Below, piece after piece: positions 28,975 to 56,290 of a DNA stretch of 64,000 nucleotides. The stretch is from the NCBI GenBank assembly GCA_963675785.1, contig OY776562.1, positions 1,632,001 through 1,696,000 on the forward strand, written 5' to 3'. The translations under genes and the position numbers were made by a program. The notes under the pieces were generated by a model that saw only the letters and a list, made by a program, of their open reading frames with translations, ran no database searches and was not told the DNA's origin. The first letter of the stretch is position 1. Every line of letters begins with the position of its first letter. The DNA comes from Anaerolineae bacterium. GTDB taxonomy: Bacteria > Chloroflexota > Anaerolineae > UBA1429.

Positions 28975-29485
28975 CCCAATAACGTACTGCAGGCCCGATG
29001 CCGTGATCGTCAAAAGCGGCGTCGGGCTTTTTTTGTACCAACTGTACATCGAGTGAGCCGTATTCCAGGGCACGCATGGGGCAAGCGCGCACACAGGTAG
29101 GCCGAAGGCCAGCAGCCAATTCATCGGCACAACCATCGCATTTGCTGGCCACCTCAGCCACCAAGGTGACTGCGCCAAAGGGACAGGCCTCGATACAGGC
29201 ACCACAACCAATGCAAACTTCAGTGTCGATCTGCACCAGATCCAACTCATTACGAGTAACTGCCTCTACCGGGCAAACCGGCAGGCAGGCTGGATCATCA
29301 CAATGCCAGCAGTGCGTCGGGCGATAGTTGAACGATATCGCCGGATAGGCGCCCCGCTCCTCCAGTGGCACACGCAGCCAGATAACATCCCCAGCCAAAT
29401 CGGCCCGATCACGACAGGCCACAGCACAAGCGTAGCAGCCGGTACACCGAGAGATATCAATGATAAAGCCCTCTCTGTTGCTCAT
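28964..29485 (-). CDS. DmsB-like 4x[4Fe-4S] electron-transfer subunit
   Basis: CTGCYACAVAC, CWHCDDPAC..VCP, CIGCGACIEACP, KCDGC...P.CVRACP. Confidence 0.92.
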   Translation of the reverse strand: MSNREGFIIDISRCTGCYACAVACRDRADLAGDVIWLRVPLEERGAYPAISFNYRPTHCWHCDDPACLPVCPVEAVTRNELDLVQIDTEVCIGCGACIEACPFGAVTLVAEVASKCDGCADELAAGLRPTCVRACPMRALEYGSLDVQLVQKKPDAAFDDHGIGPAVRYWVTR

Positions 29486-41638: not shown

Positions 41639-44600
41639 TTATGATTCTTTTGGCAGATAAATCAAAGAACAACGACAGAATGATGCGAATATGCCAAAAA
41701 GCTTTTTCCAGTTGATTTCCAACTCTGCCATTTTCATGAAACGAGGAAAGTTGCCCAAAAAGCAATGCCAATCACCAAAATGGTCGGATCTAGGAATGCA
41801 AGCATACATAGCAGTATGAAGAATACTCTTTGTCCCTCTCGCCAGTTCTTTAGCTGGATAATGCTCGTATAATGCCATATCAGGAAACGACGAGTACCAC
41901 TCGTCTGTATATCTGGATATCTCCACGGCTGAAAGGTTTTGGCTAATAATATAGTCAAGATCCTGGGAATGAATAAAGCCGTTTCTAAACGGTGCAAACT
42001 CCTCATCATCAGTATCAACCAGATCATGATTAGAAGCATTCGTATATATACAACCCTCAACAATGTTGTCATACTCTTGCGGAACGCCGGTAATGTGAAT
42101 CTCTCTTTCTATAAGGGCTTGCTTGAACAATTCTGAATAATCAGAAAGTAAAATACCTTTTACATCATAAAAGTCTATGCTTTTCGAATGCCAATAAGTA
42201 GACAGATAACTACGTATCTCTTTAGTAATATCTTCTTTAAGAAGACTATTGAGTTTTTCAGGTCTTAGTTCAAAAAAGCTGATATGTTTAGAGTCATAAT
42301 CAACACTATGGAAGTATCGGACAAAAAAGACATCACTTTTCCTATTGAGATATGAATTTAAAAGTAACCTTATGCCCTTTTCGGATTGATCCATTAGAGC
42401 AGAGAGCACTTTTGGGGATGTCTTTTCTTCGATTACACCAACTTCTTCAAATGTCAGTAATGCTTCCGCCATGGTCGAGACGGAGTAGTCCTTTCTGTTG
42501 AAATACATAAAAAAGTATTTCCAGACAGATAAGATATCAGTTTCACTATCACTGTGATTTACGTATCGCAGAAAAGCCAAGACGCGTTCACAAGTCTCAA
42601 AGGATCCTTGCGAAGCACTATCCTCAATGACGTCGAGAAGAGTTTTATCAGAAAATTCGGACGTATATCCGAGGGAAGATAAGGTTAAATAAAGCTCCTG
42701 GAAAAGTCTAGAACACATAACCTCCGGCAAATATAGTTCACGTCGATAGTACGCTAGAAGATGAGCGGGAGCGAAATCACCTCTACAAGAGACGATTTTG
42801 CATATGTCCTCATACAAAGGACTATCACTAATTTTATGTATATAAATATAAGAAAACGCAACTAGATGGGAATTATAAAAGACTTCATAAGATGTGTTTT
42901 TCAGATTTATTCCATGAAGTTGTTGATCAAGTGATTCCCAGTTTCCCCAATCAAGCTCTTCGATATTGAGAAATGTAGTTTCCTGCGTAACAGCCTTCTT
43001 AAAATCCCGCTCCGCTTTTTCTACATCATAATATGTTCTGCTGTAGGACTGTCGATAGTACTGGCTGTTCTTATGGAGGCGTGCCCGATAAGCCCCCCAA
43101 ATGAAACCCGTACTGAAGATACTGTCAATCGTGATGCCGTGCTTGTGCCAATACTCCGTAATATGAAACCAGAGACGCTCTGATCCCGCAAAGTCATGTC
43201 GTTCGGTGATAAGGCAAATAAGAATGAACGCATAATACTGATAATAATCCAGCAGTTTCTCAGACATGTGAGAAAAACGTTTTTTTAACTGCCAATAGAA
43301 TTCCTTGACAGATTCAAAGTCATAGTTTTCATCAAGTAGCTTTTTAAATACATCGAAATCAGCGTATTTTTGAAGCACCTTCGCCACAAAATCATCATCG
43401 AAATCAAATCCACTGAATCGTGAAAGATACTCTATTTCCCTGCTCAAGATGCTATCTTGAATTTGATCTATAACTTGCGAATGATCTACCACACAATTAG
43501 GCTGCCCGAGAAGATACGTATTCAAACTATCATGTATCAATGAAACACGTTTTTCATTGATCTCGAATAGATAGGGATGCTTTTTGATGAATTCCTCTAC
43601 CAGAAAAGCTGCCAATTCATGGTTCAGCAAATCGTGTATCTCTTTATATGTAAAGTAAAATCTATTAGTACTAAACAAGCTCAATGCTTTACTAATACCA
43701 TCAAATTGCATCAATGAATCGTAATAGGCATTTATGCTGTCTATTTTTTGATCAACTGCTATTTCATGATATATTATATAGTGTTCTGCTAAATAATTCG
43801 TAATAATTGGATATCCATCAGCGATTTCATATATCCTTGCTGCGGCATCAGGATCAATTTCCTTATATTCGACAAGAAACTTGAAAGTTTCACTTCTTCC
43901 CCAATTTACCAGCGTTCTTCGCTTCCATGATATCTTGCGCCTGAGTGGACGTGTTAGAACAACAACTCTGGCTTCTTGGAGCTTATCCACAAATGCAAAA
44001 TAGCGATCTAGCTCATAGCACCGATAATTCTCGATATGATCCAAACCATCTATGAAAAGAGTCAGGGTCTTATCATTGATTTCTTCTATGAGTTCATCTT
44101 CAGTAAACTCTTTGGGGGAATGAAATACTTTTTTGCAAAGATCCCTGATAAATTCAGAATATTCCAGACGATCGGATGCATTAGGATCCTGCGACCCTAT
44201 CCAAAATCTATATACGATAGCATTGGGATATGCTTCAACAAGCTCGTTCACAAAATGGCTTTTCCCAACTCCAGGCTTTCCAATAATGCAAAGAACACCC
44301 TTCTCAGGAATAGCCGTATCATGATTTACATCGAAAGTGCCCTCTGATAGAATCGCAGAAAATGCCTTTACAAATGGCAGATCATCTCTTATTACTTTGC
44401 AATTGCCATTCGAACAACATGTATGGGCGAACGAGATAATGTGGCTAATCCTTTCAGAGCTGGGATACATTTCTGTGATTTTCCGTTCAATCACGTCAGG
44501 GCTCAAAGGAACAACATAAACACCTTCTTTTAGTTTTTTTGCATTCAGGCCCAAGATCACATCCTGACATTCATCAAGTGGTATGCAATCGGTGTTAATC

Positions 44601-44887
44601 ACAGCTATGCTTGTCTTATCTCCGGCAATACGACTACAACTGCCTTTTACACTAAGAACTCCTTGTTCAGAAAGCTTGATTTCCTCAAGCGAGGTACCGG
44701 GGTAATCTTTGACCTGAAAACAATAATCGCCACCGGTATTTGTAAGACACACATCATCAAAATTATGTGCAGCGTCAAATTCGGCATCGATAGAGGTAAC
44801 ATTAGTTTCACAATCCATTATTGCCAAGAGCAAGCAATAAACTTGAACCTGATAAGCATATCCCTTGAATGCAAATAAGGCAGCCAT
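41639..44887 (-). CDS. Large P-loop (STAND/NACHT-like) ATPase with N-terminal PD-(D/E)xK-like domain; candidate anti-phage protein
   Basis: KGYAYQ...FDDV...FQVK N-terminus; GKPGVGKS Walker A; LFIDGLDH Walker B; VLTR; GYP; HDSL; visibly AT-rich relative to flanks. Confidence 0.75.
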   Translation of the reverse strand: MAALFAFKGYAYQVQVYCLLLAIMDCETNVTSIDAEFDAAHNFDDVCLTNTGGDYCFQVKDYPGTSLEEIKLSEQGVLSVKGSCSRIAGDKTSIAVINTDCIPLDECQDVILGLNAKKLKEGVYVVPLSPDVIERKITEMYPSSERISHIISFAHTCCSNGNCKVIRDDLPFVKAFSAILSEGTFDVNHDTAIPEKGVLCIIGKPGVGKSHFVNELVEAYPNAIVYRFWIGSQDPNASDRLEYSEFIRDLCKKVFHSPKEFTEDELIEEINDKTLTLFIDGLDHIENYRCYELDRYFAFVDKLQEARVVVLTRPLRRKISWKRRTLVNWGRSETFKFLVEYKEIDPDAAARIYEIADGYPIITNYLAEHYIIYHEIAVDQKIDSINAYYDSLMQFDGISKALSLFSTNRFYFTYKEIHDLLNHELAAFLVEEFIKKHPYLFEINEKRVSLIHDSLNTYLLGQPNCVVDHSQVIDQIQDSILSREIEYLSRFSGFDFDDDFVAKVLQKYADFDVFKKLLDENYDFESVKEFYWQLKKRFSHMSEKLLDYYQYYAFILICLITERHDFAGSERLWFHITEYWHKHGITIDSIFSTGFIWGAYRARLHKNSQYYRQSYSRTYYDVEKAERDFKKAVTQETTFLNIEELDWGNWESLDQQLHGINLKNTSYEVFYNSHLVAFSYIYIHKISDSPLYEDICKIVSCRGDFAPAHLLAYYRRELYLPEVMCSRLFQELYLTLSSLGYTSEFSDKTLLDVIEDSASQGSFETCERVLAFLRYVNHSDSETDILSVWKYFFMYFNRKDYSVSTMAEALLTFEEVGVIEEKTSPKVLSALMDQSEKGIRLLLNSYLNRKSDVFFVRYFHSVDYDSKHISFFELRPEKLNSLLKEDITKEIRSYLSTYWHSKSIDFYDVKGILLSDYSELFKQALIEREIHITGVPQEYDNIVEGCIYTNASNHDLVDTDDEEFAPFRNGFIHSQDLDYIISQNLSAVEISRYTDEWYSSFPDMALYEHYPAKELARGTKSILHTAMYACIPRSDHFGDWHCFLGNFPRFMKMAELEINWKKLFGIFASFCRCSLIYLPKES

Positions 44888-45058
44888 TATGTCCCTCACA
44901 AACTAGTCGATGTCTTTGCAATAAACGAACAGGAACTCGATATCGCAGCAGAATCATATGATTTATGACAACCCAGTAGCGCACTTACTATAGCGGTTTA
45001 TTAACGGCAATGCCACCCTTTTTCCTTACTCTCACGCACCTGCCAAACGCTAAAGCAA

Positions 45059-45082
45059 AGCCCGGAGCATACGCTCCGGGCT
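45059..45082. repeat. Palindromic hairpin (REP-like/terminator), second copy
   Basis: AGCCCGGAGC-atac-GCTCCGGGCT. Confidence 0.7.
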
Positions 45083-45105: not shown

Positions 45106-45675
45106 TCAATCATATCGCGCGCCGTACAATGCCTTTGCTTCTTTAGTGTACTTGTAGATAAACTCGGCCTTGTTATCGGTATAAGCATCGCGGTTGTGTT
45201 CGTACGCTTGCCACAAGCCGAGTTTCAAGCTCTCGTACTCGCTGGCGACTTGCGGATGGTCGTTCAAGTAATCGCGGAAATACAGCTCGTCGTTGTCCCC
45301 GGCGTACCGCAGATGCAGGTGGAACACCCTTTCCGAAAAACCGTCCGGCGTATAGCCCTTGTTGAAGGACAACCTTCGTTCGCTTGACGACATGCAAATA
45401 TACCCGCTGGCCTCGATCAGCGGCACGATTTCGTCGAGGCTGCACCCATCGACAACCTCGACCAGAATATCGACAATCGGCTTGGCCCAGATCGTATCCA
45501 CCGCCGTGCTGCCGATATGGCTCAGGCGGGCGATCTTGTGCGCGGGCAAAACCTGGCTCAGATGATTGGCTTCTTCTTCATACCACGCGTGCCAACGCGG
45601 GTCATGTTCCACCAGAACGATGGGGAATAATTGCCACAATTCATCCAAGGTCATTTCAGAAAGTGATTTTGGCAC
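45106..45675 (-). CDS. GrpB family nucleotidyltransferase-fold protein
   Basis: HIGSTAV..I.AKPIVDI, HLHL, FRDYL, Y..LK, YT..K..FI. Confidence 0.92.
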   Translation of the reverse strand: MPKSLSEMTLDELWQLFPIVLVEHDPRWHAWYEEEANHLSQVLPAHKIARLSHIGSTAVDTIWAKPIVDILVEVVDGCSLDEIVPLIEASGYICMSSSERRLSFNKGYTPDGFSERVFHLHLRYAGDNDELYFRDYLNDHPQVASEYESLKLGLWQAYEHNRDAYTDNKAEFIYKYTKEAKALYGARYD

Positions 45676-45744: not shown

Positions 45745-46110
45745 CTACTCTTTCTTGCCCTCACGCACCCATTCCTTATGCAGTGCATCGCGGGAGGTAG
45801 AGGCGGGCTCATAGCGGGCCTCCAGGCGGATGGCGCCGTGACGGCAAGAGGCCTCGCACTGGCCGCAAGAAGCGCAGGTATCAGCATCATAGCGCATACG
45901 CAGGCCACCATCGGGCAGACGTTCCAACACCAGGCTGCCAGCTGGACAATCGCGAACACAGAGGCTACAGCCAGTGCATTTATTTATGTCAACTACTACC
46001 CGGCCACGGTAACTGTCGGGCACCACGCCCATTACCTCCAGCCCCACAGCTTCACGCGGGGCCCGCGAACGGCGCAGCACGTGGCGCAGCAAATAGATGC
46101 GCTTGGGCAT
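45745..46110 (-). CDS. NuoI/EchF-like 2x[4Fe-4S] subunit
   Basis: YRG, CTGCSLCVRDCP, CASCGQCEASC. Confidence 0.9.
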   Translation of the reverse strand: MPKRIYLLRHVLRRSRAPREAVGLEVMGVVPDSYRGRVVVDINKCTGCSLCVRDCPAGSLVLERLPDGGLRMRYDADTCASCGQCEASCRHGAIRLEARYEPASTSRDALHKEWVREGKKE

Positions 46111-47036
46111 TAGAGCCTCCCCATCCACACAGTAAAGAGCATCTGGGCCAGGCCAGCAGGCACCAAATACAGCCAGCCAAAGGCCGCCATCTGGTCAATG
46201 CGCACCCGAGCGAACAACACTTGCACCAGGGCCAGCATGGTCACCATAAGTGCTGCCTTGAGGCCATAGGCCGCAAACCCGGCCAAACCCACAAAGGGAG
46301 CTCCCCCACCCAAATAGACCGCCACCAGCAAATTGACGCCCACCAACGTTTGCATCATGACGGTGAGCTTCCACAAGGCCAGCTTGCGGCCGCTGTATTC
46401 AGTGAGCGGGCCAGCGCCCACCTCTGATTTGGCGTGGGGGATATCAAAGGGCACCCGTTTGAGCTTGCCGATGAGCCCGACGACCGACACCATAAAGCCC
46501 ACAGGCTGCCAGAACACGCTCCAGCCCCCCTGCGCCTGTGCCGAAACCAGCCCCATAATGCTCCAGCAGCGCGTCAGCAGGGCCGGCGCGGTCAGTCCCA
46601 GCAGCAGGGGCACTTCGTAGGAGAAATATTGCAACAGCGAGCGGTTGCCACCCAGCGCGCCAAAAAAGCTGGGCGCGGTCCATCCAGCCATGAAATAGCC
46701 CAGCGTAGGGATGCTCAGCAGGAACAACACCACGATGAGGTCGGCCTCAAAATCGGCTGCGGCCCAATCGCCCACGGGTACATAGAGCGCCGCGGTGAGC
46801 ACCGAGGCGATGGAGACGATGGGCAGCACGGCGCTCAGGGCGGCGTCGGCCCCACGAATGGTGATGTCCTCCTTGGCGAACAGCTTGATGATGTCGGCCA
46901 GGGGCTGGTAGACGGGCGGGCCCACCCGACCCTGGAACAGCGCTACCAGCTTGCGATCCAGCCAGTGCACCAACAACGAGGCCGCCAGCACGTACAGCAG
47001 CCCGGGGAACACCAGCACATGGAACAAGGTCGTCAT
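46110..47036 (-). CDS. NuoH/EchB-like membrane subunit
   Basis: DRKL.A..QGRVGPP.YQP.AD..KL..KE, SYEVP, R.PFD, TEYSG, R.RIDQ. Confidence 0.92.
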   Translation of the reverse strand: MTTLFHVLVFPGLLYVLAASLLVHWLDRKLVALFQGRVGPPVYQPLADIIKLFAKEDITIRGADAALSAVLPIVSIASVLTAALYVPVGDWAAADFEADLIVVLFLLSIPTLGYFMAGWTAPSFFGALGGNRSLLQYFSYEVPLLLGLTAPALLTRCWSIMGLVSAQAQGGWSVFWQPVGFMVSVVGLIGKLKRVPFDIPHAKSEVGAGPLTEYSGRKLALWKLTVMMQTLVGVNLLVAVYLGGGAPFVGLAGFAAYGLKAALMVTMLALVQVLFARVRIDQMAAFGWLYLVPAGLAQMLFTVWMGRL

Positions 47037-47072
47037 CAAGAACTCCTATCAGGGAGATCAGGATCTCCGATC

Positions 47073-48155
47073 TCAGCGGTCAGCACAAGCGATACACAAG
47101 TCGGCCCCGGCAATCACCGCGGCTACATCGGCGGTCTGCACGCCCGAAAGCAAGTGCGGCAGGCTGGCCAGGGTGGGCAAGGTTGGCGTGCGCACTTTGA
47201 CCCGCGCTGGCGTATCAGAGCCATCCGAACGCACATAGTAAAACAGCTCGCCGCGCGGCGCCTCTATGCGCGTGGTCACCTCGCCAGCGGGCACCCGCCG
47301 AGGAGCGCGCACTTGCACTTCACCCTCGGGCAGGCCGTCTAATATCTGATGGACGATTTTCAAGCTCTCGTCGATCTCGGCCAGACGCGTATGCGCCCGG
47401 CACCATACATCGCCGCCGGTGCCGGTAATCACTTGGAAATCCATTTCCTCATAGGCCAGGTAAGGCTGTTGTTTGCGGATATCCAGCGTGCAGCCCGAAG
47501 CGCGCGCCGTGGGGCCTACCAGGCCAAGTCGGTGCACCAGATCGCCGCCCATCACCCCCAGTCGGCGGGTTCGGGCCTGAAAATTGCGGTCGTGCAGCAC
47601 CATATCGCGAAACAGCTTGAGCTGCTCCTCAAACTCGGCCAAGTTGGTTTGTACATAGCGCTCGTGGTCGGGTGTCAGATCGATGCGCACCCCGCCGATG
47701 GAGGTAGCCGAATGGGACACGCGTCCGCCGGAGAGATCCTCCATCAGGTCGAGGATGATCTCGCGGTCGCGCCAGGCGTACATGAAAATAGTGGTAAAGC
47801 CAATGGCCTCGGAAAGCACGCCCAACCAGAGCAGGTGGCTGTGGATGCGCTCTAATTCGCAAAGCAACATGCGAATGTATTGGGCACGGCGCGGCACCTC
47901 GATACCGGCCAGCTTTTCCACCGAGAGGCAAAAGGTGGTGGTGTGGGCTTGCGAACAAATACCGCAAACACGCTCGACCAGGTGCACATTCTGAATATAA
48001 GTGCGCTGCTGGGCCAGCTTTTCGATGCCGCGATGCACATAGCCGATGCGCAGATCGGCGCCCAACACGGTCTCGCCAGATACGCTCAGGTTGATGGAAA
48101 GGGGTTCTTTGAGCAAGGGATGTTGCGGCCCGATGGGGATACGAGTCGGCGTCAT
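47073..48155 (-). CDS. Group 4 [NiFe]-hydrogenase large subunit (NuoD/EchE-like)
   Basis: GPQHP, GYVHRGIEK, L1 ERVCGICS.AH, ELERIHSHL, EAPRGE, RTPT, L2 DLCIACADR-stop. Confidence 0.92.
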   Translation of the reverse strand: MTPTRIPIGPQHPLLKEPLSINLSVSGETVLGADLRIGYVHRGIEKLAQQRTYIQNVHLVERVCGICSQAHTTTFCLSVEKLAGIEVPRRAQYIRMLLCELERIHSHLLWLGVLSEAIGFTTIFMYAWRDREIILDLMEDLSGGRVSHSATSIGGVRIDLTPDHERYVQTNLAEFEEQLKLFRDMVLHDRNFQARTRRLGVMGGDLVHRLGLVGPTARASGCTLDIRKQQPYLAYEEMDFQVITGTGGDVWCRAHTRLAEIDESLKIVHQILDGLPEGEVQVRAPRRVPAGEVTTRIEAPRGELFYYVRSDGSDTPARVKVRTPTLPTLASLPHLLSGVQTADVAAVIAGADLCIACADR

Positions 48156-48589
48156 GCGTTCTCCTCCTCATTCAACAAAGGCGGTGGTCCCTGCCAGTCG
48201 TCGGGCAACAGCAGCGGCTTGATCTCCCCCCGGCCCTCGATGGTGACGCCCAGCATCTCGTGCACCTCGCGCTCGTACCAGTTGGCTACCAGCATAATCG
48301 GGGTCAGGCTGGGTACGCTCAGATCATCCATCGGCAGCAACAGGCGCAGGGTAATGCCACAGCCGCCGTAAAAGTGGTACATCAGTGAGACGCCCTGGGG
48401 CAGGCGTTGGCCAGTGATGGTGGTCAAGTGGTGCACATCTGCCGCCACCAGGGCTCGCGCCGCCTCGATCAGATTCTCACGGGGCAGGTCATAGCAAATC
48501 TCGTTCTGGGGGCCCTCACCGCGTTGGGCACCGCATTCAACAAGCGCAGTGTCGATGGCGGCGAGATCAGCAGAAAGCAGATCATCCAT
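48152..48589 (-). CDS. NuoC/EchD-like subunit
   Basis: L.TITG, YHF, VPSL......ANWYEREVHEMLG....G, LLLPDDW...PPL. Confidence 0.9.
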   Translation of the reverse strand: MDDLLSADLAAIDTALVECGAQRGEGPQNEICYDLPRENLIEAARALVAADVHHLTTITGQRLPQGVSLMYHFYGGCGITLRLLLPMDDLSVPSLTPIMLVANWYEREVHEMLGVTIEGRGEIKPLLLPDDWQGPPPLLNEEENA

Positions 48590-49008
48590 CAGATACCCTC
48601 CAACAGTTGGGAAATGGCCTCGATGACGGCCTCGGGGCGTGGCGGGCAGCCGGGAACATACAAGGCCACCGGCACCACCTGATCGATACCGCCCAGCACG
48701 TTATAGCTGGCCTGCACAATGCCACCCGAACAGGCGCAAGCGCCAATGGCCACCACCCAACGCGGCTCGGCCATCTGCTCGTAAATGCGCCGTAGCGGGC
48801 GCGCTGACTGGCGCGTCACCGGCCCGGTGGTCAGCAGAATGTCGGCGTGACGCGGCGAGGCCTCTTTGAGGATTCCCAGCCGCTCAATGTCATAGCGGGG
48901 CGTCAGCAAGTCGAGAATCTCGATATCGCAGCCGTTACAGCCGCCGGTGTTGTAATGCAGCACCCAGGGCGATTTACGCCGCGCCCAGCGCACCACGCGG
49001 TCGATCAT
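48589..49008 (-). CDS. NuoB/EchC-like hydrogenase small subunit
   Basis: GGCNGCDIE (hydrogenase-type CxxC, not the NuoB tandem CC), SPRHAD, GACACSGG, VPGCPPRP. Confidence 0.93.
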   Translation of the reverse strand: MIDRVVRWARRKSPWVLHYNTGGCNGCDIEILDLLTPRYDIERLGILKEASPRHADILLTTGPVTRQSARPLRRIYEQMAEPRWVVAIGACACSGGIVQASYNVLGGIDQVVPVALYVPGCPPRPEAVIEAISQLLEGI

Positions 49009-49343
49009 GATTCCTCTCCCTCGTGGGTTAGTACGTCCACGCAAAGCCCGGTGCCCAGCAAAAAGGCCGCTGCCAGCACCCAGGCGTTGCCCTCCAGGGG
49101 CAGCATAGCTACCACCAGTGCGGCCATGTGTACCACCACAAACATCAAACCCAGCCTGAAATAACGTTGGTAAGAGAGCTCCATCTCCTCAGGCACTAAC
49201 TCTTGCCCCCCGGCGTAAGGCTCTATCTTGCCAGGTTCATCATCTCGACCGCGAGGGGCGATCCTGCCGGACCAGCGATAGAGGCCATAGGCCAACAATC
49301 CGAAAAGGGCCAGCGCCAGTGGGGGGCTTGTCAACCAATCCAT
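49005..49343 (-). CDS. NuoA-like membrane subunit
   Basis: 3 TM helices with K.EPYAGG loop (cf. NuoA K..PYECG) and Y..YF motif; directly precedes the NuoB-like gene. Confidence 0.8.
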   Translation of the reverse strand: MDWLTSPPLALALFGLLAYGLYRWSGRIAPRGRDDEPGKIEPYAGGQELVPEEMELSYQRYFRLGLMFVVVHMAALVVAMLPLEGNAWVLAAAFLLGTGLCVDVLTHEGEES

Positions 49344-49344
49344 G

Positions 49345-50787
49345 TCAACCTCCCAAGGCCAACAAGGAGGCAGCTGCTTTCGTAGCAGCTACCATCACCG
49401 GGGTGGGCCAGACGCCCATCCCCAAGGCCATAACCGCCATTAGCACCATGGGCACCAGCATCCAGGCGGAAACAGGAGCATGCGGCCCCTCAATGCGCTT
49501 GTGGGTGAGCAGTCGACCCACCAGGGGCACGTAATAGCCCAAGCTAAGCAGGCTGTTGAGCACAAAAAGCACCACCACCGTGCCACTCAGCCAATCCCAC
49601 TGGCGCAGACCGCCCTGCAAGAACAGCCACTTGCTGATAAAGCCGTTGAGTGGTGGCACACCGGCCAGCCCCAGCAATGCCACAGTGAACACTACCGTCG
49701 TGGCCGGTGCGCGGTCCATCAACCCGTCCAGATCAGAGAGCATGGTGCTATCCATGTAATAGTGACAAACGCCTTTGCTGAGAAAAGCCAGCCCCTTGAG
49801 CAGCGCGTGGGCGGCAATGAGGTAAAAAGCCGCGGCCAGCATCTCCACATGCCCGCTGACCAAACCCAACCCCAGGGCCGCGGCCACATAGCCGGTCTGG
49901 GCAATGGAGGAATAGGCCAACATCCGCTTGCCGTAGGTTTGCACCAGGGCCATGCTGTTGCCCACCGTCATGTTGAGCACGCCCTCGACCACCAGCGCCC
50001 AACCCAAAATTCGCGGCTCAATGCCCAAGCCCAGCCCTACGCGCACCAACACCAGCAGATTGACCTGGATGAGCACACCAGAAAGTAGCGCGCTGATGCT
50101 GGATGGCGCTCGTCCATGAGCATCGGGTAACCAGGTGTGCGCTGGCACCAAGGCTGCCTTGACGGCGTAGCCGAGCATCATCAGCACGGCGCCAAACAGG
50201 CCCCAGGTGCCCATGGCAGCAGCACCACTAGTCAAAGCCAGGCTCCCCGACTGGCGATAGACATAGCCCAGGCCAAAGAGGATGAGCATGGCTGCAGATG
50301 AGCCCATGATGGCGTACTTGAAACCAGCCTCCACGGCGGTATCCGTGGTGCGGCGAAAGGCCACCAGCACATAAGAGCAGGCGCTGGCCAGAATGGTAGC
50401 CAGATAGAGCGTGAAGAGATCGACGGCGCAGAGCATGGCCAGCAGACCAGCGCACATCAGCAGCACCAGTGAATAGTAATAACGATAGCGCTTATCCTCC
50501 GACATATAGCGCCCCGAGTAGACGGAGATTAGCAGACCCAGGCCCAACACGATGACGCCCATAAAACGCGATACATCGTCTATAACAAAAGTGGCCGCCG
50601 TACCCTGGCTGGAGGTCCAAGCTAGGCCGTTTGTCCAGCCAAGCAGTAGGCGTCGCAAGGCCACAGCAAACACAGCGGCTGTAAGCAGGGCCATCAAGCC
50701 ATTACTGCTGATGAGGCGGCTGACGACATAGAGCGATACCGCGCCCAGCGCTAGTACGACCAGGGGAGCCAACAGGGGATCAGACAT
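49345..50787 (-). CDS. NuoN/MrpD-like antiporter-type subunit
   Basis: EAGFKY, K...VP.HTWLPDAH..AP, KR.LAYSSIAQ.GY, GVPPLNGFISK. Confidence 0.9.
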   Translation of the reverse strand: MSDPLLAPLVVLALGAVSLYVVSRLISSNGLMALLTAAVFAVALRRLLLGWTNGLAWTSSQGTAATFVIDDVSRFMGVIVLGLGLLISVYSGRYMSEDKRYRYYYSLVLLMCAGLLAMLCAVDLFTLYLATILASACSYVLVAFRRTTDTAVEAGFKYAIMGSSAAMLILFGLGYVYRQSGSLALTSGAAAMGTWGLFGAVLMMLGYAVKAALVPAHTWLPDAHGRAPSSISALLSGVLIQVNLLVLVRVGLGLGIEPRILGWALVVEGVLNMTVGNSMALVQTYGKRMLAYSSIAQTGYVAAALGLGLVSGHVEMLAAAFYLIAAHALLKGLAFLSKGVCHYYMDSTMLSDLDGLMDRAPATTVVFTVALLGLAGVPPLNGFISKWLFLQGGLRQWDWLSGTVVVLFVLNSLLSLGYYVPLVGRLLTHKRIEGPHAPVSAWMLVPMVLMAVMALGMGVWPTPVMVAATKAAASLLALGG

Positions 50788-50788
50788 G

Positions 50789-52234
50789 CTAGGCACCTCC
50801 GGGAATGAGCAATCCGGCGGCGGCACTGCCCCAGCCATAGAGCAGGCCGGGAAACAACCCCAGTATGAGCACCAGCAGCACAGCCGCCGCAGTAGACCAA
50901 CGCATGGCCGCTGGCACCTGTTGTACGGCCATATCCAGCGGGGCTTGGCCGCTGTTTACGCGCACAACAAGCCATACCGCGTACATGGTCGTAGCCAGCG
51001 GTGCCAACAGTTCCAGCACGGCCAACAAGCTATAGGGCGCAGCAAACCCGGCCAGGATGATTTGCAATTCGCCGTAAAAGGCGGCAAAGGGCGGTAGCCC
51101 GGCAATAGCCATGGCGCCCAGTGCCAACCAAAGGCCAGCCCCGGGCAATACCCGGGCCAGTCCACGAATCCGCTCAATATTGCGCCGCGAGGTGGCCAGC
51201 ATGATCCAGCCCACGGCCATAAACAGCGCTGCTTTGATCAAGCCGTGGGTAACCACCTGCATCACGGCGCCGGTCAGGCCGGCCTCACTCAGCGTACCGA
51301 TGGCAAAGAGCACATAGCCCATCTGGCTGACGCTGGAATAAGCGACGATGCGTTTGATGTCGTGTGAAGAGATGGCCATCAGGGCGCCGTATATCTGTGA
51401 CACCAAACCGGCGATCATCAGCGGCACTTGCAAGGGCTGTAATGCCGCCACGCCCAAAATGCCCACGGCAAAACGCATCATGCCATAGGCACCCATGCTG
51501 AGCATAGCCCCAGCCAACATCACCGTCACCGGCATGGGAGCGATCGAGTGGGCATCGGGCAGCCAGGTGTGCAATGGAAAGACTGCCAACTTGACGCCAA
51601 AGCCCAACACCAACAAACCAGCCAACCAAGTGAGCGTCGTGGCAGGAATTCCTGCCGCCATAGCCTGGCCAGTCATATCGGTGGTACCAGAGTGAACCGC
51701 CATATAAGCCAGCACGCCCAGCACCGTCAGCGAGCCAAGCTGGGTATAGAGCACGTACTTGAACGTAATGCGCCCAACCTGCTCGCCACTGCCCCACCAC
51801 AAGAGCAATAAGCTGGAGGCTACCAGCATGAGTTCCCAAAAGAGGAAAAAGACCAGCGCATCGTGGGCCAACACGGTGCCCACCATACTGCCGCAAAAGG
51901 CAGCCATGAGCGCATAGACGACGTGCCCGCGTGGAAAGCTTTGTAAATAGCCCAGACCGTACAGGCTGGCCAACAGTGTTACGCTCAGCACGGTGATGGC
52001 AAAAGGCCGGGCCAGGGCATCCAGCACCAGGCTAAAGGATGGCCCGTTCTGAATCCAAGGCAGTGAGAAGGAGCTTGCAGGTGCGACAATCACTAAAACG
52101 AGGGTAGCTCCCACAGCGGTACAGGTCGCCACACCGGCGATGCGCGTCCGCTTGGTCAGCCGCGCGGGCAAGACGAAACTGATCAGGCTTGCCGCCCAGG
52201 GCAGTATCAGAATGAGAGCGAGCATCCAGGGCAA
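50789..52234 (-). CDS. NuoM-like antiporter-type subunit
   Basis: FFLFWELML, KY.LYT..GS, VK...FPLHTWLPDAH..AP, DIKRIVAYSSVSQMG, GLP....F.GE. Confidence 0.9.
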   Translation of the reverse strand: MPWMLALILILPWAASLISFVLPARLTKRTRIAGVATCTAVGATLVLVIVAPASSFSLPWIQNGPSFSLVLDALARPFAITVLSVTLLASLYGLGYLQSFPRGHVVYALMAAFCGSMVGTVLAHDALVFFLFWELMLVASSLLLLWWGSGEQVGRITFKYVLYTQLGSLTVLGVLAYMAVHSGTTDMTGQAMAAGIPATTLTWLAGLLVLGFGVKLAVFPLHTWLPDAHSIAPMPVTVMLAGAMLSMGAYGMMRFAVGILGVAALQPLQVPLMIAGLVSQIYGALMAISSHDIKRIVAYSSVSQMGYVLFAIGTLSEAGLTGAVMQVVTHGLIKAALFMAVGWIMLATSRRNIERIRGLARVLPGAGLWLALGAMAIAGLPPFAAFYGELQIILAGFAAPYSLLAVLELLAPLATTMYAVWLVVRVNSGQAPLDMAVQQVPAAMRWSTAAAVLLVLILGLFPGLLYGWGSAAAGLLIPGGA

Positions 52235-52244
52235 GGTTAGCCTC

Positions 52245-53558
52245 CTACAATAACGAAAATACAGCAACAAAAGCCAGCGCTAGTACAATCAGGCCGGCCA
52301 TCCAGGCCAGATTGGCCCGCAGCTTGCCCGTGTGCAGGCGGCGCAAACGGCGCCCTACCTCCAATGCTGAACGCTGTACATTGACAAAACCCTTTTCAAG
52401 GACATGCTCATCGATGGCGCTGGCCGCACGCGAGGCGCTCTCGGTCAAATGCCAAACCCAGGCATTGAGTGGCTCTAGCAGCCGCGTCTCGACGAATAAG
52501 GCCGCAATCGAAAGCCTATCCCATCTTGTGTTCAATGGGGCGTTATCAGCGTATTCGCCCCGAGCCTCGTCCACAACTCTTGGGGCAGACAGGATCATCA
52601 ATACCCCTCGCAGCGGCATGAAAGAATAGAGATAGGCATATGGCCAGCCCAGAGGCACAATCACCAGCGCAAGCGCCCCATGTGCTACTTCCAAATGGTG
52701 CAAGCGCAACCTGCTTTCGGCTCGAACAGCGCAAATCAGAGCCCAGATCATGATTCCGGCACCGGCCACAACCAAAGGAGTCGTCAGGTGCAGTGCCTGA
52801 ATGCCGCCCTCCAAACGATAGAGCAAATAGGCGCCCAACAGAGGTAGGCCCGCCGTAGCCGCCGACCATCGTTCAGGGCTAGCGATCTCGCCTGCAACGG
52901 CTAACCAGCGATCAAATGGATAGAGGCCCAGCTTGATCCACACTGCCAACAGGCCCATCAGTACTGCCAGCCAGGTGGTACCATCGGCTGCCTGGGCAGC
53001 GGCAGCCAACATGGGGGAGATGAGCAGCGTGTCGTGGGCCTGCCAGAGCACGATGATAGCCCCCAGCAAAGCCAGATCGCCCAAACGCAAAGTGAGAAAA
53101 GAGCCGACTAGATCGCGCCAATTGCCGCGACGTACCGTCATAACCAGCGTGGCCAAAGCAGCCGCCTCCAGAAAGGCATAGCGGTAGAGAAAATGGTTGA
53201 CGTTCAGCGCAGCAAAAGAGGCAGCCAGCAAGATCGGTGCAGCCAAAGCCTGCCACCAGGCCGACGCAGGTTGATCGGCATCTTGCCAAAGCAGCAGGGC
53301 ATAGCCCAGAATGGCCAGCCCGCTCAACTCGGTGCCGCGCTCATCCAGGGCAATCACTCCCGGCTCGATCCAGGGAATCCAGCCCAGATTGATCGTTGAA
53401 GCATCGCGGTGAACTAGGGCCACCAACGCAGCCAAAGCAACAGCTACCGCCACCATACGCAATAGCCGCGCGCGTTTGGCTGTAACCGGAGCAGGCAAGG
53501 TACGCAGCAGTCCTCCTGCCAAAGCCAGTGCCAGCGTTGCCATGATGAAATAGATCAT
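52245..53558 (-). CDS. Shortened, degenerate NuoL/MrpA-like subunit
   Basis: LRLGD, IKLGLYPF..WL, GAYLLYR; C-terminal amphipathic helix and LRRLHTGKL..NL.W TM as in the NuoL tail. Confidence 0.78.
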   Translation of the reverse strand: MIYFIMATLALALAGGLLRTLPAPVTAKRARLLRMVAVAVALAALVALVHRDASTINLGWIPWIEPGVIALDERGTELSGLAILGYALLLWQDADQPASAWWQALAAPILLAASFAALNVNHFLYRYAFLEAAALATLVMTVRRGNWRDLVGSFLTLRLGDLALLGAIIVLWQAHDTLLISPMLAAAAQAADGTTWLAVLMGLLAVWIKLGLYPFDRWLAVAGEIASPERWSAATAGLPLLGAYLLYRLEGGIQALHLTTPLVVAGAGIMIWALICAVRAESRLRLHHLEVAHGALALVIVPLGWPYAYLYSFMPLRGVLMILSAPRVVDEARGEYADNAPLNTRWDRLSIAALFVETRLLEPLNAWVWHLTESASRAASAIDEHVLEKGFVNVQRSALEVGRRLRRLHTGKLRANLAWMAGLIVLALAFVAVFSLL

Positions 53559-53878
53559 CCGCGTAGCGTCCTGAGGTCATCCACCTCACCAGAGGGGAAA
53601 TAGCGCAAAGCGTTGATAGTAAGCGCTAGAACGATGGCCAACACGATGGTCTCGGCCACCAAGGCAGAGACCACCAGACTTTGCACTAACTCCAAGTCGC
53701 CCTGTACGCGGGCGGCATCCACAAAGTTGAGCAGGGCGCCCTGCAACATGATGTTGAGACCGATGACCTGTTTGAGCAGACGACGACAGGTAAGAAGACA
53801 GAGGAAGCCAATCAAGATCAGCGCAGCAGAGAGTAACGGGTTGACGATATCTAGCAGAGGATCGGGTAAAGACTGCAT
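53555..53878 (-). CDS. NuoK/MrpC-like subunit
   Basis: 3 TM; LLK.VIGL.IM, AE..V.A..LAL, DDLRTLRG C-terminus. Confidence 0.85.
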   Translation of the reverse strand: MQSLPDPLLDIVNPLLSAALILIGFLCLLTCRRLLKQVIGLNIMLQGALLNFVDAARVQGDLELVQSLVVSALVAETIVLAIVLALTINALRYFPSGEVDDLRTLRG

Positions 53879-53881
53879 GAT

Positions 53882-54112
53882 CTAACTCTCCTCGTCACGG
53901 CCGGGCAGCAAAGCGCGAATGCCCAAGGCCCCGGCAAACATGAGAGCCAACTGAAACAAGAGATCGGGCTGGCGGGATGTCCAGAGGGTGAAAAAGGAGG
54001 CTTCTTCACTCGAGGATTTTTCTCCCAGTAAAATGTAAAGGCCTGCCCCAAGCACCAGCAAAAGGATCACGCCGGTTCTGCCCAGAAGCAGGTCAATGAG
54101 TTTGGACTTCAT
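53882..54112 (-). CDS. Small membrane protein, probable C-terminal half of a split NuoJ
   Basis: 2 TM, LW..R..DLL.Q...MFAGALG...L; position between the NuoJ-N and NuoK homologs. Confidence 0.65.
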   Translation of the reverse strand: MKSKLIDLLLGRTGVILLLVLGAGLYILLGEKSSSEEASFFTLWTSRQPDLLFQLALMFAGALGIRALLPGRDEES

Positions 54113-54138
54113 CGTCTCCCCACAGTTTTATGGCCGGG

Positions 54139-54420
54139 TTAAACCCCGGGGCTATTGTCACGGGTCTCTTGTTTGCGCCGTTTGCCGATGGATTCGGCCA
54201 AGCTAAGAGCGATGATAAAAAGCGTGCTCACCAATCCAGCGCCCACAGAAAGCTGAATAGCAGCAGCATAAGGCGCCTGCAGTAGGTAGAACATCAAAGC
54301 CAAGCCGCTGCTGGCCACAATGAGAGCCCCAGCTGCTCGGATGAGTTCCCTGGTACGAACGGCTACAATCGCCGCCGTCAGGACAAGTGCTGCTGCTACC
54401 AGATATGCTGTCGTCATCAC
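54139..54420 (-). CDS. NuoJ N-terminal-like (DUF4040/MrpB-type) membrane subunit
   Basis: LIRAA.AL......LA..FY.L.APY.A.IQL.VGAG. Confidence 0.8.
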   Translation of the reverse strand: MMTTAYLVAAALVLTAAIVAVRTRELIRAAGALIVASSGLALMFYLLQAPYAAAIQLSVGAGLVSTLFIIALSLAESIGKRRKQETRDNSPGV

Positions 54421-54524
54421 TCACTCTGTTGTATTGAAGAAAAAACCGCGTCGGTCTGCCATGGCCGGTGCGGTCTATCTTTTATATATCATAGCATAGC
54501 AGGCGGCAACAGGCAACCAACATG

Positions 54525-54553
54525 AAAAAAGCGCCCCGCAACAGCGGGGCGCT
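54525..54553 (-). terminator. Terminator after the NapH-like gene
   Basis: Minus strand AGCGCCCCGC-tgtt-GCGGGGCGCTTTTTT. Confidence 0.8.
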
Positions 54554-54566
54554 CAGGAAAACAGGA

Positions 54567-55346
54567 CTATCTACAACAGAGTGTGCCTTCACGGGGACAG
54601 GCGCCGGTGCATTCCATGCAGCGAATGCATTCCATGCTGCGCTCTACCTCGGTAGATGGGTCAATATCCATGGGACAGATGGCTTCACAACGCCCGCAAG
54701 AGACACAACTGGTCTCATCGGCCTTGATGCGCCAACGAGAGAATAAGTTGGTGACGGAGAGCACCGCCCCCAGAGGACAAGCATAGCGGCACCAAAAACG
54801 CTCAATAGCGATGGACCAAATCAGGAATACGACGACCACGCCAGCACCCAGGGCACTGCCTACATTCATGGTGAACAAGGTACGGTAGGGACAAAAGGCC
54901 ATGAGGGGCGGCACCACAGCGGTGATGCTGGCATAGATCACCCAGCCCAGCACCAGCCACTTGACCCAGCGCATAGGACGGTCGAGCCAACGCGGCAGAT
55001 GAATGGGCAACCAGTGCTTGCGCCCACCGGTAATGCGCCGCAAAAAGCGGCTAATCCAACCCTGTACCGTGCCCAAGGGGCAAAACCAACCACAGAACAC
55101 CCGACCAAAGAGAACCCCAGAGATCAACACTAGCCCCAGCAACACCAAATTGATGATGCTGGTATAGCGTAAAACGGTGCCTGAAGTAAGAAAAGTTGAG
55201 ATCAACTCAATGCCACCCATGGCGCAAATGGCGTCAAAGGAAGCAATGAGCCCCAGTGAAAAGGCTATGCCGATGCCGATGGCAATGAGTAAGCCAATAC
55301 CCTGCGAGATGCGGCGGTAGATCTGAAGGCGATTCTTGGCCGCCAT
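54567..55346 (-). CDS. NapH/MauN-like membrane polyferredoxin (4Fe-4S binding protein)
   Basis: GRVFCGWFCPLG, FCP, ERFWCRYACPLG, CVSCGRCEAICP, CIRCMECTGACP. Confidence 0.92.
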   Translation of the reverse strand: MAAKNRLQIYRRISQGIGLLIAIGIGIAFSLGLIASFDAICAMGGIELISTFLTSGTVLRYTSIINLVLLGLVLISGVLFGRVFCGWFCPLGTVQGWISRFLRRITGGRKHWLPIHLPRWLDRPMRWVKWLVLGWVIYASITAVVPPLMAFCPYRTLFTMNVGSALGAGVVVVFLIWSIAIERFWCRYACPLGAVLSVTNLFSRWRIKADETSCVSCGRCEAICPMDIDPSTEVERSMECIRCMECTGACPREGTLCCR

Positions 55347-56173
55347 CAGTGACTGCCCCTGCCGGAGCCACTGGAAGAACTGGAAAGCTGCTCATAGAGT
55401 GCGGGCTCGGAGTAATCACAATAGCCATTGCCGTTGGAATCGACATAGTCATGGCACAAGCCGGGATAAGGATCCCAAACCTGCCCTTTGGGACAGGCTA
55501 CTTGCCCAGTGACGCTGGTATCGACGGTGGAATCGGATGTCACAGCAGGCACGGCGGTTGCCGTCGCTGTTGCGACCGCAGTTGTGGCCGTTTCCTCGAT
55601 CAAAGTATCTGATGATTCTTCGGGCTCAGACAGGTCGCAAATGGCGTTGTTGTTCAGATCGCAATAGCGATTGCACTGACCCGGGAAGGGATCATTCAAT
55701 ATGCCAAAAGGACAAGCAACCACAACAGCAGCAGTCGCCGTTGCTTCGGCGGTAGCCTCAGCAGTTGCGGATGATTCTGTTGTTGCATCCGGTGTAGCCG
55801 TGGCCATTGAATCAGCCGCAGGTTCGGAATAGTCGCAATAGCCGCTGCCGGTGGTATCCACGTAATTGAGGCACTGGCCGGGGTAGGCATCGTACTGTAA
55901 TCCAAAGGGGCAAGTGGAGACGAAACTGGAATCCACAGTTACCGTTGCAACAGCCGCTGCCGCAGCCGTCGTGGCGCTGGATGATTCTATGCGGTCGCAC
56001 AATGCGTTGCCATTGGCATCGTAACAGGCAGCACAGGGGCCAGTGCAAATGCCATCAGCCGAAATGGGGCAATCGCTCACGATGTAAAGTCCACCCATGG
56101 CTCCGGTAGCAACCACGCCTCCGGCAAGCACCAGGAACTGTCGGCGGTCGAGTTTTCGTTTCTTGGGGACCAT
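55346..56173 (-). CDS. Tat-signal protein with three CPxG..D(P)YPGxC..Y.D..G.G.CD.SEP repeats
   Basis: DRRQFL twin-arginine motif plus hydrophobic stretch; repeats separated by Thr/Ala linkers; coupled to the NapH-like gene (TGATG). Confidence 0.82.
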   Translation of the reverse strand: MVPKKRKLDRRQFLVLAGGVVATGAMGGLYIVSDCPISADGICTGPCAACYDANGNALCDRIESSSATTAAAAAVATVTVDSSFVSTCPFGLQYDAYPGQCLNYVDTTGSGYCDYSEPAADSMATATPDATTESSATAEATAEATATAAVVVACPFGILNDPFPGQCNRYCDLNNNAICDLSEPEESSDTLIEETATTAVATATATAVPAVTSDSTVDTSVTGQVACPKGQVWDPYPGLCHDYVDSNGNGYCDYSEPALYEQLSSSSSGSGRGSH

Positions 56174-56290
56174 TATACCCTTCCTGTGTATGGTTGGATA
56201 AAGCATATTAGATGACTATAGTATAAGGAATAAATGTTCGTGAAATGTTAAGAGTCAATCAGGATGTTGCATAGTTAAAGCTGTTCTTAC

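Follow-up and report, generated by a model that had tools for sequence, protein, structure and literature searches.

A predicted group 4 [NiFe]-hydrogenase with a complex I-type set of membrane subunits in an Anaerolineae genome

Membrane-bound hydrogenases are regarded as ancestral to complex I. A stretch of 64,000 nucleotides (nt) from an Anaerolineae bacterium (assembly GCA_963675785.1, contig OY776562.1, positions 1,632,001 to 1,696,000 of the forward strand; hereafter the window, meaning this whole stretch) bears on that relationship, as it carries an operon in which subunits of a complex I-like membrane arm accompany a large subunit with the ligands of a Ni-Fe site. What kind of enzyme does such an operon encode, and does it stand between hydrogenases and complex I, as an original prediction made from the sequence alone had proposed? 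Our analysis indicates that the product of the operon is probably an energy-converting [NiFe]-hydrogenase of group 4, bound to the membrane, composed of 12 subunits, ferredoxin-linked and ion-translocating, which belongs to the neighbourhood of the loosely defined group 4g. The host, which that prediction took to be a probable member of Chloroflexota, indeed belongs to this phylum, class Anaerolineae.

The operon and its Ni-Fe site

Twelve genes run along the minus strand from 54420 to 45745 in the order J-J'-K-L-M-N-A-B-C-D-H-I, with overlaps or gaps of no more than about 30 nt between neighbours; open reading frames (ORFs) and translations bear out both the order and the tight packing first read from the sequence. 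Genes were assigned by Pfam and NCBIfam profile matches of the translations, while motifs were read directly and aligned with Escherichia coli proteins from an annotated record. Counterparts of all 11 complex I core subunits are present, as had been claimed, the 'NuoA' among them falling below threshold for the window protein itself (E=0.054). In order of transcription, with lengths in amino acids (aa), the genes are:

54139..54420, minus strand: J, N-terminal half of NuoJ, MbhD-type, 93 aa (PF00499 1.2e-10, 41.8 bits, cut-off 33.2; PF13244 MbhD 8.2e-9)
53882..54112, minus strand: J', small protein with two transmembrane (TM) helices, 76 aa, MbhE/MbsE/MrpB-N-like (no Pfam match; family profile leads to MbsE)
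53555..53878, minus strand: K, NuoK/MrpC-like, 107 aa (PF00420 3.9e-13; best NCBIfam match PRK08388, cation/H+ antiporter subunit C)
52245..53558, minus strand: L, truncated, fast-evolving antiporter-like subunit, NuoL/MbsH'-like, 437 aa (PF00361 1.1e-6; AlphaFold2 (AF2) model and Foldseek)
50789..52270, minus strand: M, NuoM/NdhD-type antiporter-like subunit, 493 aa (PF00361 1.9e-60; TIGR01972 277.8 bits, cut-off 263.8)
49345..50838, minus strand: N, NuoN/MbhH-type antiporter-like subunit, 497 aa (PF00361 1.5e-51; best PDB match MbhH)
49005..49343, minus strand: A, 3-TM NuoA/ND3-like subunit, 112 aa (PF00507 E=0.054; no Pfam match at E<=0.01)
48589..49044, minus strand: B, hydrogenase small subunit / NuoB-like, one [4Fe-4S] (PF01058 6.6e-33; CNGC...GAC...GCPP)
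48152..48589, minus strand: C, NuoC/MbhK-like, 145 aa (PF00329 3.7e-21)
47073..48155, minus strand: D, [NiFe] large subunit, 360 aa (PF00346 5.7e-72, PF00374 4.2e-16; L1 CGICSQAH, L2 DLCIACADR)
46110..47039, minus strand: H, NuoH/MbhM-like membrane anchor, 309 aa (PF00146 3.6e-71)
45745..46128, minus strand: I, NuoI/MbhN-like ferredoxin-type subunit with two [4Fe-4S] (Fer4 families)

The evidence for a hydrogenase lies in D and B. At the positions where E. coli NuoCD has DRIEYLG and DFVMSDVDR, D carries ERVCGIC and DLCIACADR followed directly by the stop codon, and the alignment upholds the reading of two Ni-ligating CxxC motifs without a C-terminal extension: D ends right after its L2 motif, and the 32-residue C-terminal tail of HycE and HyfG is not present. 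D also has GPQHPLLKEP where NuoCD has GPNHPSAHGA (KEP versus HGA) and is without the roughly 22-residue insertion specific to NuoCD. In B, the sequence GGCNGCDIE resembles GGCNGCEIE of HycG, the corresponding NuoB sequence being GLSCCYVEM; the hydrogenase-type CNGC noted earlier thus aligns with the CNGC/CNAC of HycG/HyfI and not with the CC of NuoB. All four cysteines of D, its Glu17 and the Leu of 'DLC' are each kept in 50/50 orthologues, and Cys36, Cys39, Cys103 and Cys133 of B are each kept in 68/68, a conservation far beyond chance. The group 4 motifs given in the accessible text of PMC7886697 (L1, C[GS][ILV]C[AGNS]xxH; L2, [DE][PL]Cx[AGST]Cx[DE][RL]) fit both CGICSQAH and DLCIACADR, and NuoB-, NuoI-, NuoC- and NuoH-like subunits as well as the antiporter-like subunits, the set that marks group 4, all have Pfam matches. 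Subunit I contains the motifs CTGCSLCVRDCP and CASCGQCEASC, its NuoI/HycF-type NCBIfam matches being below their respective cut-offs, and H shows a mean column identity of 69% across 38 orthologues.

Among solved structures, D is closest to MbhL (6cfw_L, 276 bits over the full length), followed by Nqo4 (237), HycE (213) and MbsL (202). Its position was examined in a FastTree tree of 144 rows: the window D, three sequences from E. coli as references, and 140 cluster representatives, which remained of the best 150 found by an exhaustive search once ten with fewer than 330 residues had been removed. Supports are local SH-like values only, and clade names come from the labels of cluster representatives and from E. 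coli records. The window D groups with two representatives (support 100), one of which has members named Pelolinea, and this clade is sister (support 90) to another with a named Anaerolineales member that carries DPCFSCNDR and a C-terminal tail. Both fall within a larger clade of 32 rows (support 93); Methanoregula and Bathyarchaeota are among the names of its representatives, the Bathyarchaeota one (P0127) lying in another sub-clade than the window D. The surrounding rows carry both Cys motifs, and D lies deep inside them, well away both from HycE/HyfG and from the NuoD-like rows without these cysteines. In the HydDB data table, enzymes of Anaerolinea thermophila and Methanoregula formicica are entered as group 4g, formerly 4d, and the table of the HydDB paper lists that of Bathyarchaeota BA1 as 4g; judged by the labels of the same or related taxa in the tree, D would stand next to these 4g members. 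Because D is nested among Cys-bearing rows near taxa listed as 4g, we assign the enzyme to 4g or its immediate vicinity rather than to a position between hydrogenases and NuoD. The proposed intermediate therefore survives as a complex I-type subunit set on a hydrogenase with its active site, but not as an intermediate position of D itself. Since the DLCIAC motif has 0 matches among HydDB entries, the window sub-clade appears to fall outside the 2016 HydDB set.

Some close relatives have C and D fused into a single protein of 517-530 aa (PF00329 + PF00346; P0081, P0083, P0087, P0088, P0122 and others), with identities of 61-63% by BLAST and 57% for P0122.

The membrane arm

The three antiporter-like subunits are of different types. 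N is best matched by MbhH in the PDB (6cfw_H, 191.8 bits, versus 106 for E. coli NuoN), whereas the best matches of M are cyanobacterial NdhD (6tjv_D, 184 bits) and E. coli NuoM (163 bits). L has no PDB sequence match at E<=1 and owes its identity to a fold search only, in which its AF2 model (pLDDT 80.6) matched MbsH' (6u8y_X), NdhF, NuoL and MrpA with a probability of 1.0 and a TMq of about 0.6 over about 350 columns; in this model a C-terminal stretch of roughly 100 residues folds into long helices followed by a final membrane helix, reminiscent of the lateral helix and anchor of NuoL. In a tree of 49 sequences of antiporter-like subunits (IQ-TREE short search, SH-aLRT support only), the N family stands beside the N of the sister Anaerolineales clade and both with NuoN (support 99), the M family forms a clade of its own next to NuoM, and the branch of L is very long; the sister clade's other antiporter-like subunit falls with NuoL (support 98). 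These placements suggest that the window complex has one subunit of each complex I type, L, M and N, while its core appears to be Mbh-like.

Each of the three keeps charged residues in its TM helices. M retains the TM5 Glu, TM7 Lys and TM12 Glu, and its Glu146 and Lys227 occur in 59/59 orthologues and Glu401 in 57/59. N retains the TM7 Lys, the TM12 Lys and the His, with Lys227 in 45/45 orthologues. L belongs to a family that ranges from 414 to 690 aa and evolves fast, in which the TM5 Glu131 is nearly invariant (at least 90% of 43 rows) and the TM7 Lys209 invariant.

The Mbh-like character extends to the gene order. In the Mbh operon the genes run MbhD-E-G-H-I-J-K-L-M-N. The order of the window genes had been taken as a circular permutation of the nuo operon; the order stands as read, but it is that of Mbh/Mrp with two extra antiporter genes inserted and no special permutation of nuo.

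Two small subunits, A and J', are harder to assign. PF00507 (NuoA/ND3) matched 16 of 22 A orthologues at E<=1, with a best value of 5.4e-5. A profile of the A family found ND3/NuoA chains over nearly their full length at E 0.05-0.7, amid noise that included unrelated receptors, and gave no match to the MbhI chain. The AF2 model of A (pLDDT 77.8) has helices at 7-28, 57-80 and 87-107, which is the NuoA topology of a helix, a long loop and two helices, and the loop motif K-x3-Y-x2-G, invariant in 22/22 orthologues, aligns with K-x2-P-F-E-S-G of E. coli NuoA. A fold search with this model gave no match at E<=0.001 and ND3 chains at E 7-9 among unrelated helices; such a search appears to be uninformative for a three-helix protein. 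Together these results weakly suggest that A is NuoA-like, on evidence that is sub-threshold for the window protein but consistent across the family.

J' orthologues (n=18) gave no match to PF00499 (NuoJ) or MbhE at E<=1 and one weak match to MnhB (E=0.037). The best PDB match of the family profile is MbsE (6u8y_E, MrpB-type; E=0.049) over the motif D-L-x2-Q-x2-L-x3-G-A-L-G, and a hidden Markov model (HMM) of J' matched between J and K in 39/39 loci, 17 of which had supplied sequences for the HMM. We propose that J' is the counterpart of the C-terminal half of NuoJ. Because it resembles MbsE/MrpB and not the NuoJ profile, the 'split NuoJ' of the original prediction would correspond to the MbhD + MbhE arrangement of Mrp-linked hydrogenases. 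Profile searches therefore support J as NuoJ-like and the A family, at best, as NuoA-like, but not J' as a match to NuoJ.

Surroundings, distribution and proposed function

Three further features lie at the borders of the operon:

54488..54516, minus strand: candidate sigma-70-like promoter, TTGCCT-17-TATGAT with TG extension, upstream of J (consensus match)
45106-45675, downstream of I: GrpB gene, non-conserved
45059..45082, minus strand: terminator-like hairpin after the GrpB gene, 10 pairs, 8 of them G-C

The promoter candidate is one match only among the sigma-70-like consensus sites of the region (8, versus 4.9 expected). No strong hairpin was found between I and GrpB, and transcription of the unit probably ends at the hairpin at 45059..45082. 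At 54529-54554, 3' of a NapH-like gene and just upstream of the promoter candidate, lies a strong hairpin that likewise resembles a terminator. Directly upstream of the operon, 54567-56206 on the minus strand encodes this NapH/MauN-like membrane Fe-S protein together with a Tat-signal Cys-rich repeat protein. Both genes, and GrpB downstream, were considered as parts of the system and rejected, being found in 0/80 related loci, in which the flanking genes of the operon are not conserved; the NapH-like gene is placed outside the system also because the hairpin at 54529-54554 cuts it off from the operon. Given the ATGA-type overlaps or 1-nt spacing to the preceding stop codon, the true starts of B, I and N are probably ATG 49008, ATG 46110 and ATG 50787. 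Elsewhere in the window, a 702-aa molybdopterin oxidoreductase (29485-31590, minus strand; PF00384 + PF01568) is encoded 14 kb from the operon, with no link to the hydrogenase seen. A 1086-aa ORF (41642-44899, minus strand) has only a weak AAA_22 P-loop match (4.2e-6) and lies in a stretch of 37% G+C, the window being otherwise at about 55%. This stretch has the look of foreign DNA, and the ORF possibly encodes a STAND/defence-type NTPase.

Relatives of D occur in 118 species-level genomes in one scan of species-representative genomes, and the best 80 loci, which were examined, all come from metagenome-assembled genomes of Chloroflexota, mostly Anaerolineae/Anaerolineales (including Pelolinea, Brevefilum, Ornatilinea and Thermoflexales). 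Synteny was scored by tblastn of the window proteins where the sequence around D extended to 7 kb or more upstream and 2.3 kb or more downstream, which left 41 loci. In 37 of these, J, K, L, M, N, A, B, C, D, H and I are all kept in the same order; the remaining four comprise two loci with 10 of the 11 genes, one with 8 and one with 6. In loci L044, L062 and L066 (also L049 and L041) the operon span is 2-3 kb longer, with extra DNA between B/C or D/H. Across the class, an even sample of 301 genomes holds the window type, scored by identity band (47-54%) and not by synteny, in about a dozen genomes including the window's own, and the sister type (63-74% identity to its representative) in about 16. 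In the family to which the host genome belongs, a match of any kind occurs in only 1 of 10 other genomes, and the other nine have no NuoD-like match (E<=1e-40, 4g query), which suggests that complex-I-type enzymes are rare and the operon patchy in this family.

The host genome (G000) is a single contig (C1) of 3.22 Mb, 94.8% complete, and the window operon is its one NuoD-like (PF00346) locus. The expectation that maturation genes would accompany the enzyme is borne out at the level of the genome, where hypABFCDE were found: hypF, C, D and E, and hypA with a HypB-like CobW-family GTPase at G000:C1:193.6-194.6 kb. They belong to a region (G000:C1:186000-201000) that encodes an NAD-linked, Hox-type group 3d hydrogenase (NuoE/F-like, NuoG-like, small and large subunits), the Hox genes being followed by a 161-aa ORF and then by hypA, hypB, hypF, hypC, hypD, hypE, a FocA-type formate channel and FdhD. 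A third [NiFe] large subunit is encoded at C1:841991-843181, and the genome also has a POR-like multi-subunit 2-oxoacid:ferredoxin oxidoreductase locus. Among the families searched, RnfD, MenA and PF02621 (a futalosine-pathway family) were not found in the genome. In and beside the operon there is no NuoE/F/G- or FpoF-like gene, in agreement with the claimed absence of an NADH or F420 input module, nor was any other electron-input gene (formate dehydrogenase, FDH; carbon monoxide dehydrogenase, CODH) found in or adjoining it.

From these data we infer the ferredoxin donor, reaction direction, pumped ion and stoichiometry, and complex geometry of the window enzyme. We hypothesize that 2-oxoacid:ferredoxin oxidoreductases supply reduced ferredoxin, which would dock on I with its two [4Fe-4S] clusters, and that electrons would leave I for the one [4Fe-4S] cluster of B and from there reach the Ni-Fe site of D, at which H2 would be formed from protons, with Glu17 of D as the putative proton-relay Glu. 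The redox step would be coupled to the movement of H+ (or Na+), as in Mbh and complex I, via loops of D, H and the NuoA-like A, then through an H/A/J/J'/K channel and on to the antiporter-like subunits, at most three of them: N, M and L, the last truncated but equipped with a lateral helix. The enzyme is expected to be able to work in both directions.

Several observations weigh against this reading or parts of it. Enzymes of group 4g are described as biochemically uncharacterised (PMC5037454 and the accessible text of PMC7886697). The hyp set is not specific to the window enzyme, since it adjoins the Hox hydrogenase and a third [NiFe] enzyme exists, and the NiCoT nickel permease (PF03824) was not found in the genome, where Nik and Cbi-type systems were not searched for. 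With respect to three working pumps, L is truncated and very divergent, and N has Ile149 at the position of the TM5 Glu that is kept in 43/45 orthologues, a change that may weaken or alter the N pump module in this lineage. Three pumps would also be hard to power, because the transfer of electrons from ferredoxin to H+ yields little energy. Given this low yield, the truncated L and the Ile149 of N, the arm may be in part structural or an antiporter.

Four alternatives were weighed. That the same enzyme runs in reverse, with an ion gradient made by ATP hydrolysis driving H2-dependent ferredoxin reduction, as is known for Eha/Ehb/Ech of methanogens, seems to us unlikely. In its favour, the HydDB table describes the enzymes of group 4 as reversible, the ion/electron ratio would rise with a longer antiporter arm in a way that suits an uphill reaction, and this is the direction proposed by Loh et al. 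2021 for Hfo with its 11 subunits (PMC7886697); but with the POR-like locus present and no RnfD found, re-oxidation of ferredoxin is the more obvious need (large ferredoxin sinks such as Wood-Ljungdahl were not searched), and a Hox-type bidirectional enzyme is present as well. Electrons could instead come from a dedicated module encoded elsewhere (FDH, CODH or NADH diaphorase), as in formate hydrogenlyase, Coo and Mhy. Enzymes of groups 4a, 4b and 4c work in this manner (HydDB table), and FocA, FdhD and the NuoEFG-like Hox diaphorase near the hyp genes, together with the molybdopterin oxidoreductase 14 kb away, would offer candidates. This source is nevertheless very improbable in our view: no such gene lies in the operon or is conserved beside it in the 80 related loci, which were examined with window proteins, the operon seems to have its own promoter and terminator (candidate elements), and D is far from E. 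coli HycE/HyfG in the tree. Extremely unlikely, in our view, is the reading that the cysteines are vestigial and that the operon encodes an oxidoreductase of the Fpo-like, NDH-1 or Mbs/Ehr kind which passes electrons from ferredoxin to quinone or another acceptor. The best NCBIfam match of D is the NuoD model (373 bits, cut-off 360), and many sources label relatives of D as NuoD, but the invariant cysteines, Glu and full L1/L2 motifs, the missing NuoD-specific insertion, the nesting among Cys-bearing hydrogenases rather than Cys-less rows, and the failure to find MenA and the futalosine-pathway family all speak against it.

The fourth alternative concerns the shape of the predicted ferredoxin-linked hydrogenase. 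We lean away from, but take as a serious possibility, an Mbh-shaped complex in which the peripheral arm with H docks on N, A serves as MbhI, and the far side is occupied by J/J'/K, followed by M and L. Its likeness to complex I would then concern the parts and not the geometry. The order N-A-B-C-D-H-I parallels mbhH-I-J-K-L-M-N, the bit scores of N and D favour MbhH and MbhL, and J/J' are of the MbhD and MbsE/MrpB type. MBH and MBS have this rotated arrangement (PMC8165549). Conversely, A has the full three-helix NuoA topology and its profile finds ND3/NuoA but not MbhI, the antiporter-like subunits represent the three complex I types (L, M and N), and the C-terminus of L, which resembles a lateral helix, would suit a linear L-M-N arm. 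A complex-I-like form is, moreover, reported for AF2-multimer models of Asgard relatives (preprint 10.1101/2024.07.04.601786).

An active Ni-Fe site joined to a complex-I-like arm would provide a natural test bed for the coupling of redox chemistry to several ion pumps, and the presence of three antiporter-like subunits against a weak driving reaction poses a concrete question of energetic mismatch. As the genome is closed, holds only this one complex-I-type enzyme and shows no detected quinone pathway or Rnf, the physiological role of the enzyme should be unusually clean to test. If truly complex-I-shaped, it would serve as a bacterial, cultivation-accessible model. A bolder and rather doubtful scenario, which we offer tentatively, is that within Anaerolineae a working [NiFe]-hydrogenase gained a full complex-I-type arm (A, split J, K, N, M, L) by its own route, the NuoM-type subunit being added while the L-type shrank and diverged. 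The link to the archaeal Hfo may be one of common origin or of convergence. If this scenario were true and the assembled enzyme complex-I-shaped, either the whole L-M-N arm could be driven by low-energy ferredoxin-to-proton chemistry or part of the arm would not be a pump, and the architecture of complex I would have arisen more than once, or before the use of quinones.

Comparison with known systems

In the literature searched we found no description of this architecture in Anaerolineae, with the supplementary group 4 tree of Chloroflexi in preprint 10.1101/2021.08.23.457424 and Figures 5 and 6 of PMC7886697, any of which might show it, unreadable. The concept itself is published, and the novelty is accordingly limited: reports on Hfo (2021, PMC7886697) and on Asgard hydrogenases (2024 preprint, 10.1101/2024.07.04.601786) describe it. 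Those examples are archaeal and known from metagenomes only, whereas the window family is bacterial and widespread in Anaerolineae. An 'Mbh' of Chloroflexi has been mentioned without its architecture (PMC3971608), and 4g-like 'Mrp-Mbh' loci related to enzymes of Pelobacter and Clostridia appear in the accessible text of Matheus Carnevali et al. 2019 (PMC6349859).

Hfo of Bathyarchaeia, a 4g enzyme (subgroup 4g-6), was presented by Loh et al. 2021 as the first [NiFe] hydrogenase to share both its 11 subunits and its gene order with Fpo/Nuo, with Hfo-like clusters noted in two other archaea (PMC7886697, accessible text). Like Hfo, the window enzyme has intact L1/L2 motifs and counterparts of all 11 Nuo/Fpo core subunits, with J split in two and with A and J' assigned on weak profile evidence; both are without NuoEFG/FpoF and without the MbhABCF sodium module, and both are predicted to be ferredoxin-linked and ion-translocating. 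Unlike Hfo, the window enzyme is bacterial, its genes do not follow the Fpo/Nuo order (A-B-C-D-H-I-J-K-L-M-N), its J is split in the manner of Mbh, its N is MbhH-like and its L is truncated. The Asgard hydrogenases of groups 4j-4q, as described in 10.1101/2024.07.04.601786, likewise combine NuoBCDI, without NuoEFG, with a membrane arm like that of complex I; their NuoD is predicted to form an active hydrogenase, and their donor is ferredoxin. Their predicted structures are complex-I-like with shorter arms, and they are archaeal where the window enzyme is bacterial.

Mbh of Pyrococcus furiosus (group 4d, PDB 6CFW) is the best solved relative of D and N and has the MbhD-type J. Its gene order from D and E through G to N is common to both operons, and a ferredoxin donor is predicted for the window enzyme as it holds for Mbh. 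The window operon differs in having no MbhA/B/C/F (= MrpE, F, G, B) sodium module between its promoter and terminator candidates, in its three antiporter-like subunits versus one (MbhH), and in a NuoA-like subunit at the position of MbhI; the HydDB class of its nearest labelled relatives is 4g, not 4d.

More distant systems share parts of this architecture. E. coli Hyf (group 4a) likewise has three antiporter-like subunits (HyfB, D, F), a NuoH-like subunit and a NuoK/J-like subunit, but it has a formate hydrogenlyase input, no NuoA-like gene, a NuoC-fused large subunit and a cleaved C-terminal tail, and HyfG is distant from the window D in the tree. Ech (group 4e) comprises six subunits with one antiporter-like subunit and no NuoA/J/K, in contrast to twelve genes including J, J', K and A. 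In Ehr, Mbx and Mbs the Ni-Fe cysteines are lost, whereas the window D keeps all four and scores lower with MbsL than with MbhL. With complex I, NDH-1 and Fpo the window complex shares all 11 core subunit types, an M above the NuoM cut-off and the L-M-N complement; it differs in a D with Ni-Fe ligands and not of the quinone-site type, a B with CxxC and not CC, and a split J.

Closest of all is the sister Anaerolineales 4g clade (cf. Anaerolinea thermophila WP_013560598.1, a HydDB entry matched to it by eye on the same tail, not computed). All four loci examined (L111-L114, in genomes G080, G133, G287 and G130) have 11 genes in the order J-(J')-K-L-type-N-A-B-C-D-H-I, the same as in the window apart from M. 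Its antiporter-like subunits number only two, one N-type and one L-type, the latter about 585 aa long, whereas the window adds an M-type and has a degenerate L; the D of the sister clade is about 49% identical, carries DPCFSCNDR and has a C-terminal tail of about 30 residues. Since its loci carry the NuoA-like, split-J and K genes too, the '6 subunits' given by HydDB for 4g would be an underestimate. Set among these systems, the window enzyme is real, conserved and well defined, a bacterial variant of complex-I-like 4g hydrogenases that have already been described, with a gene order of its own and, by its subunit types, an Mbh-type core and an L-M-N arm.

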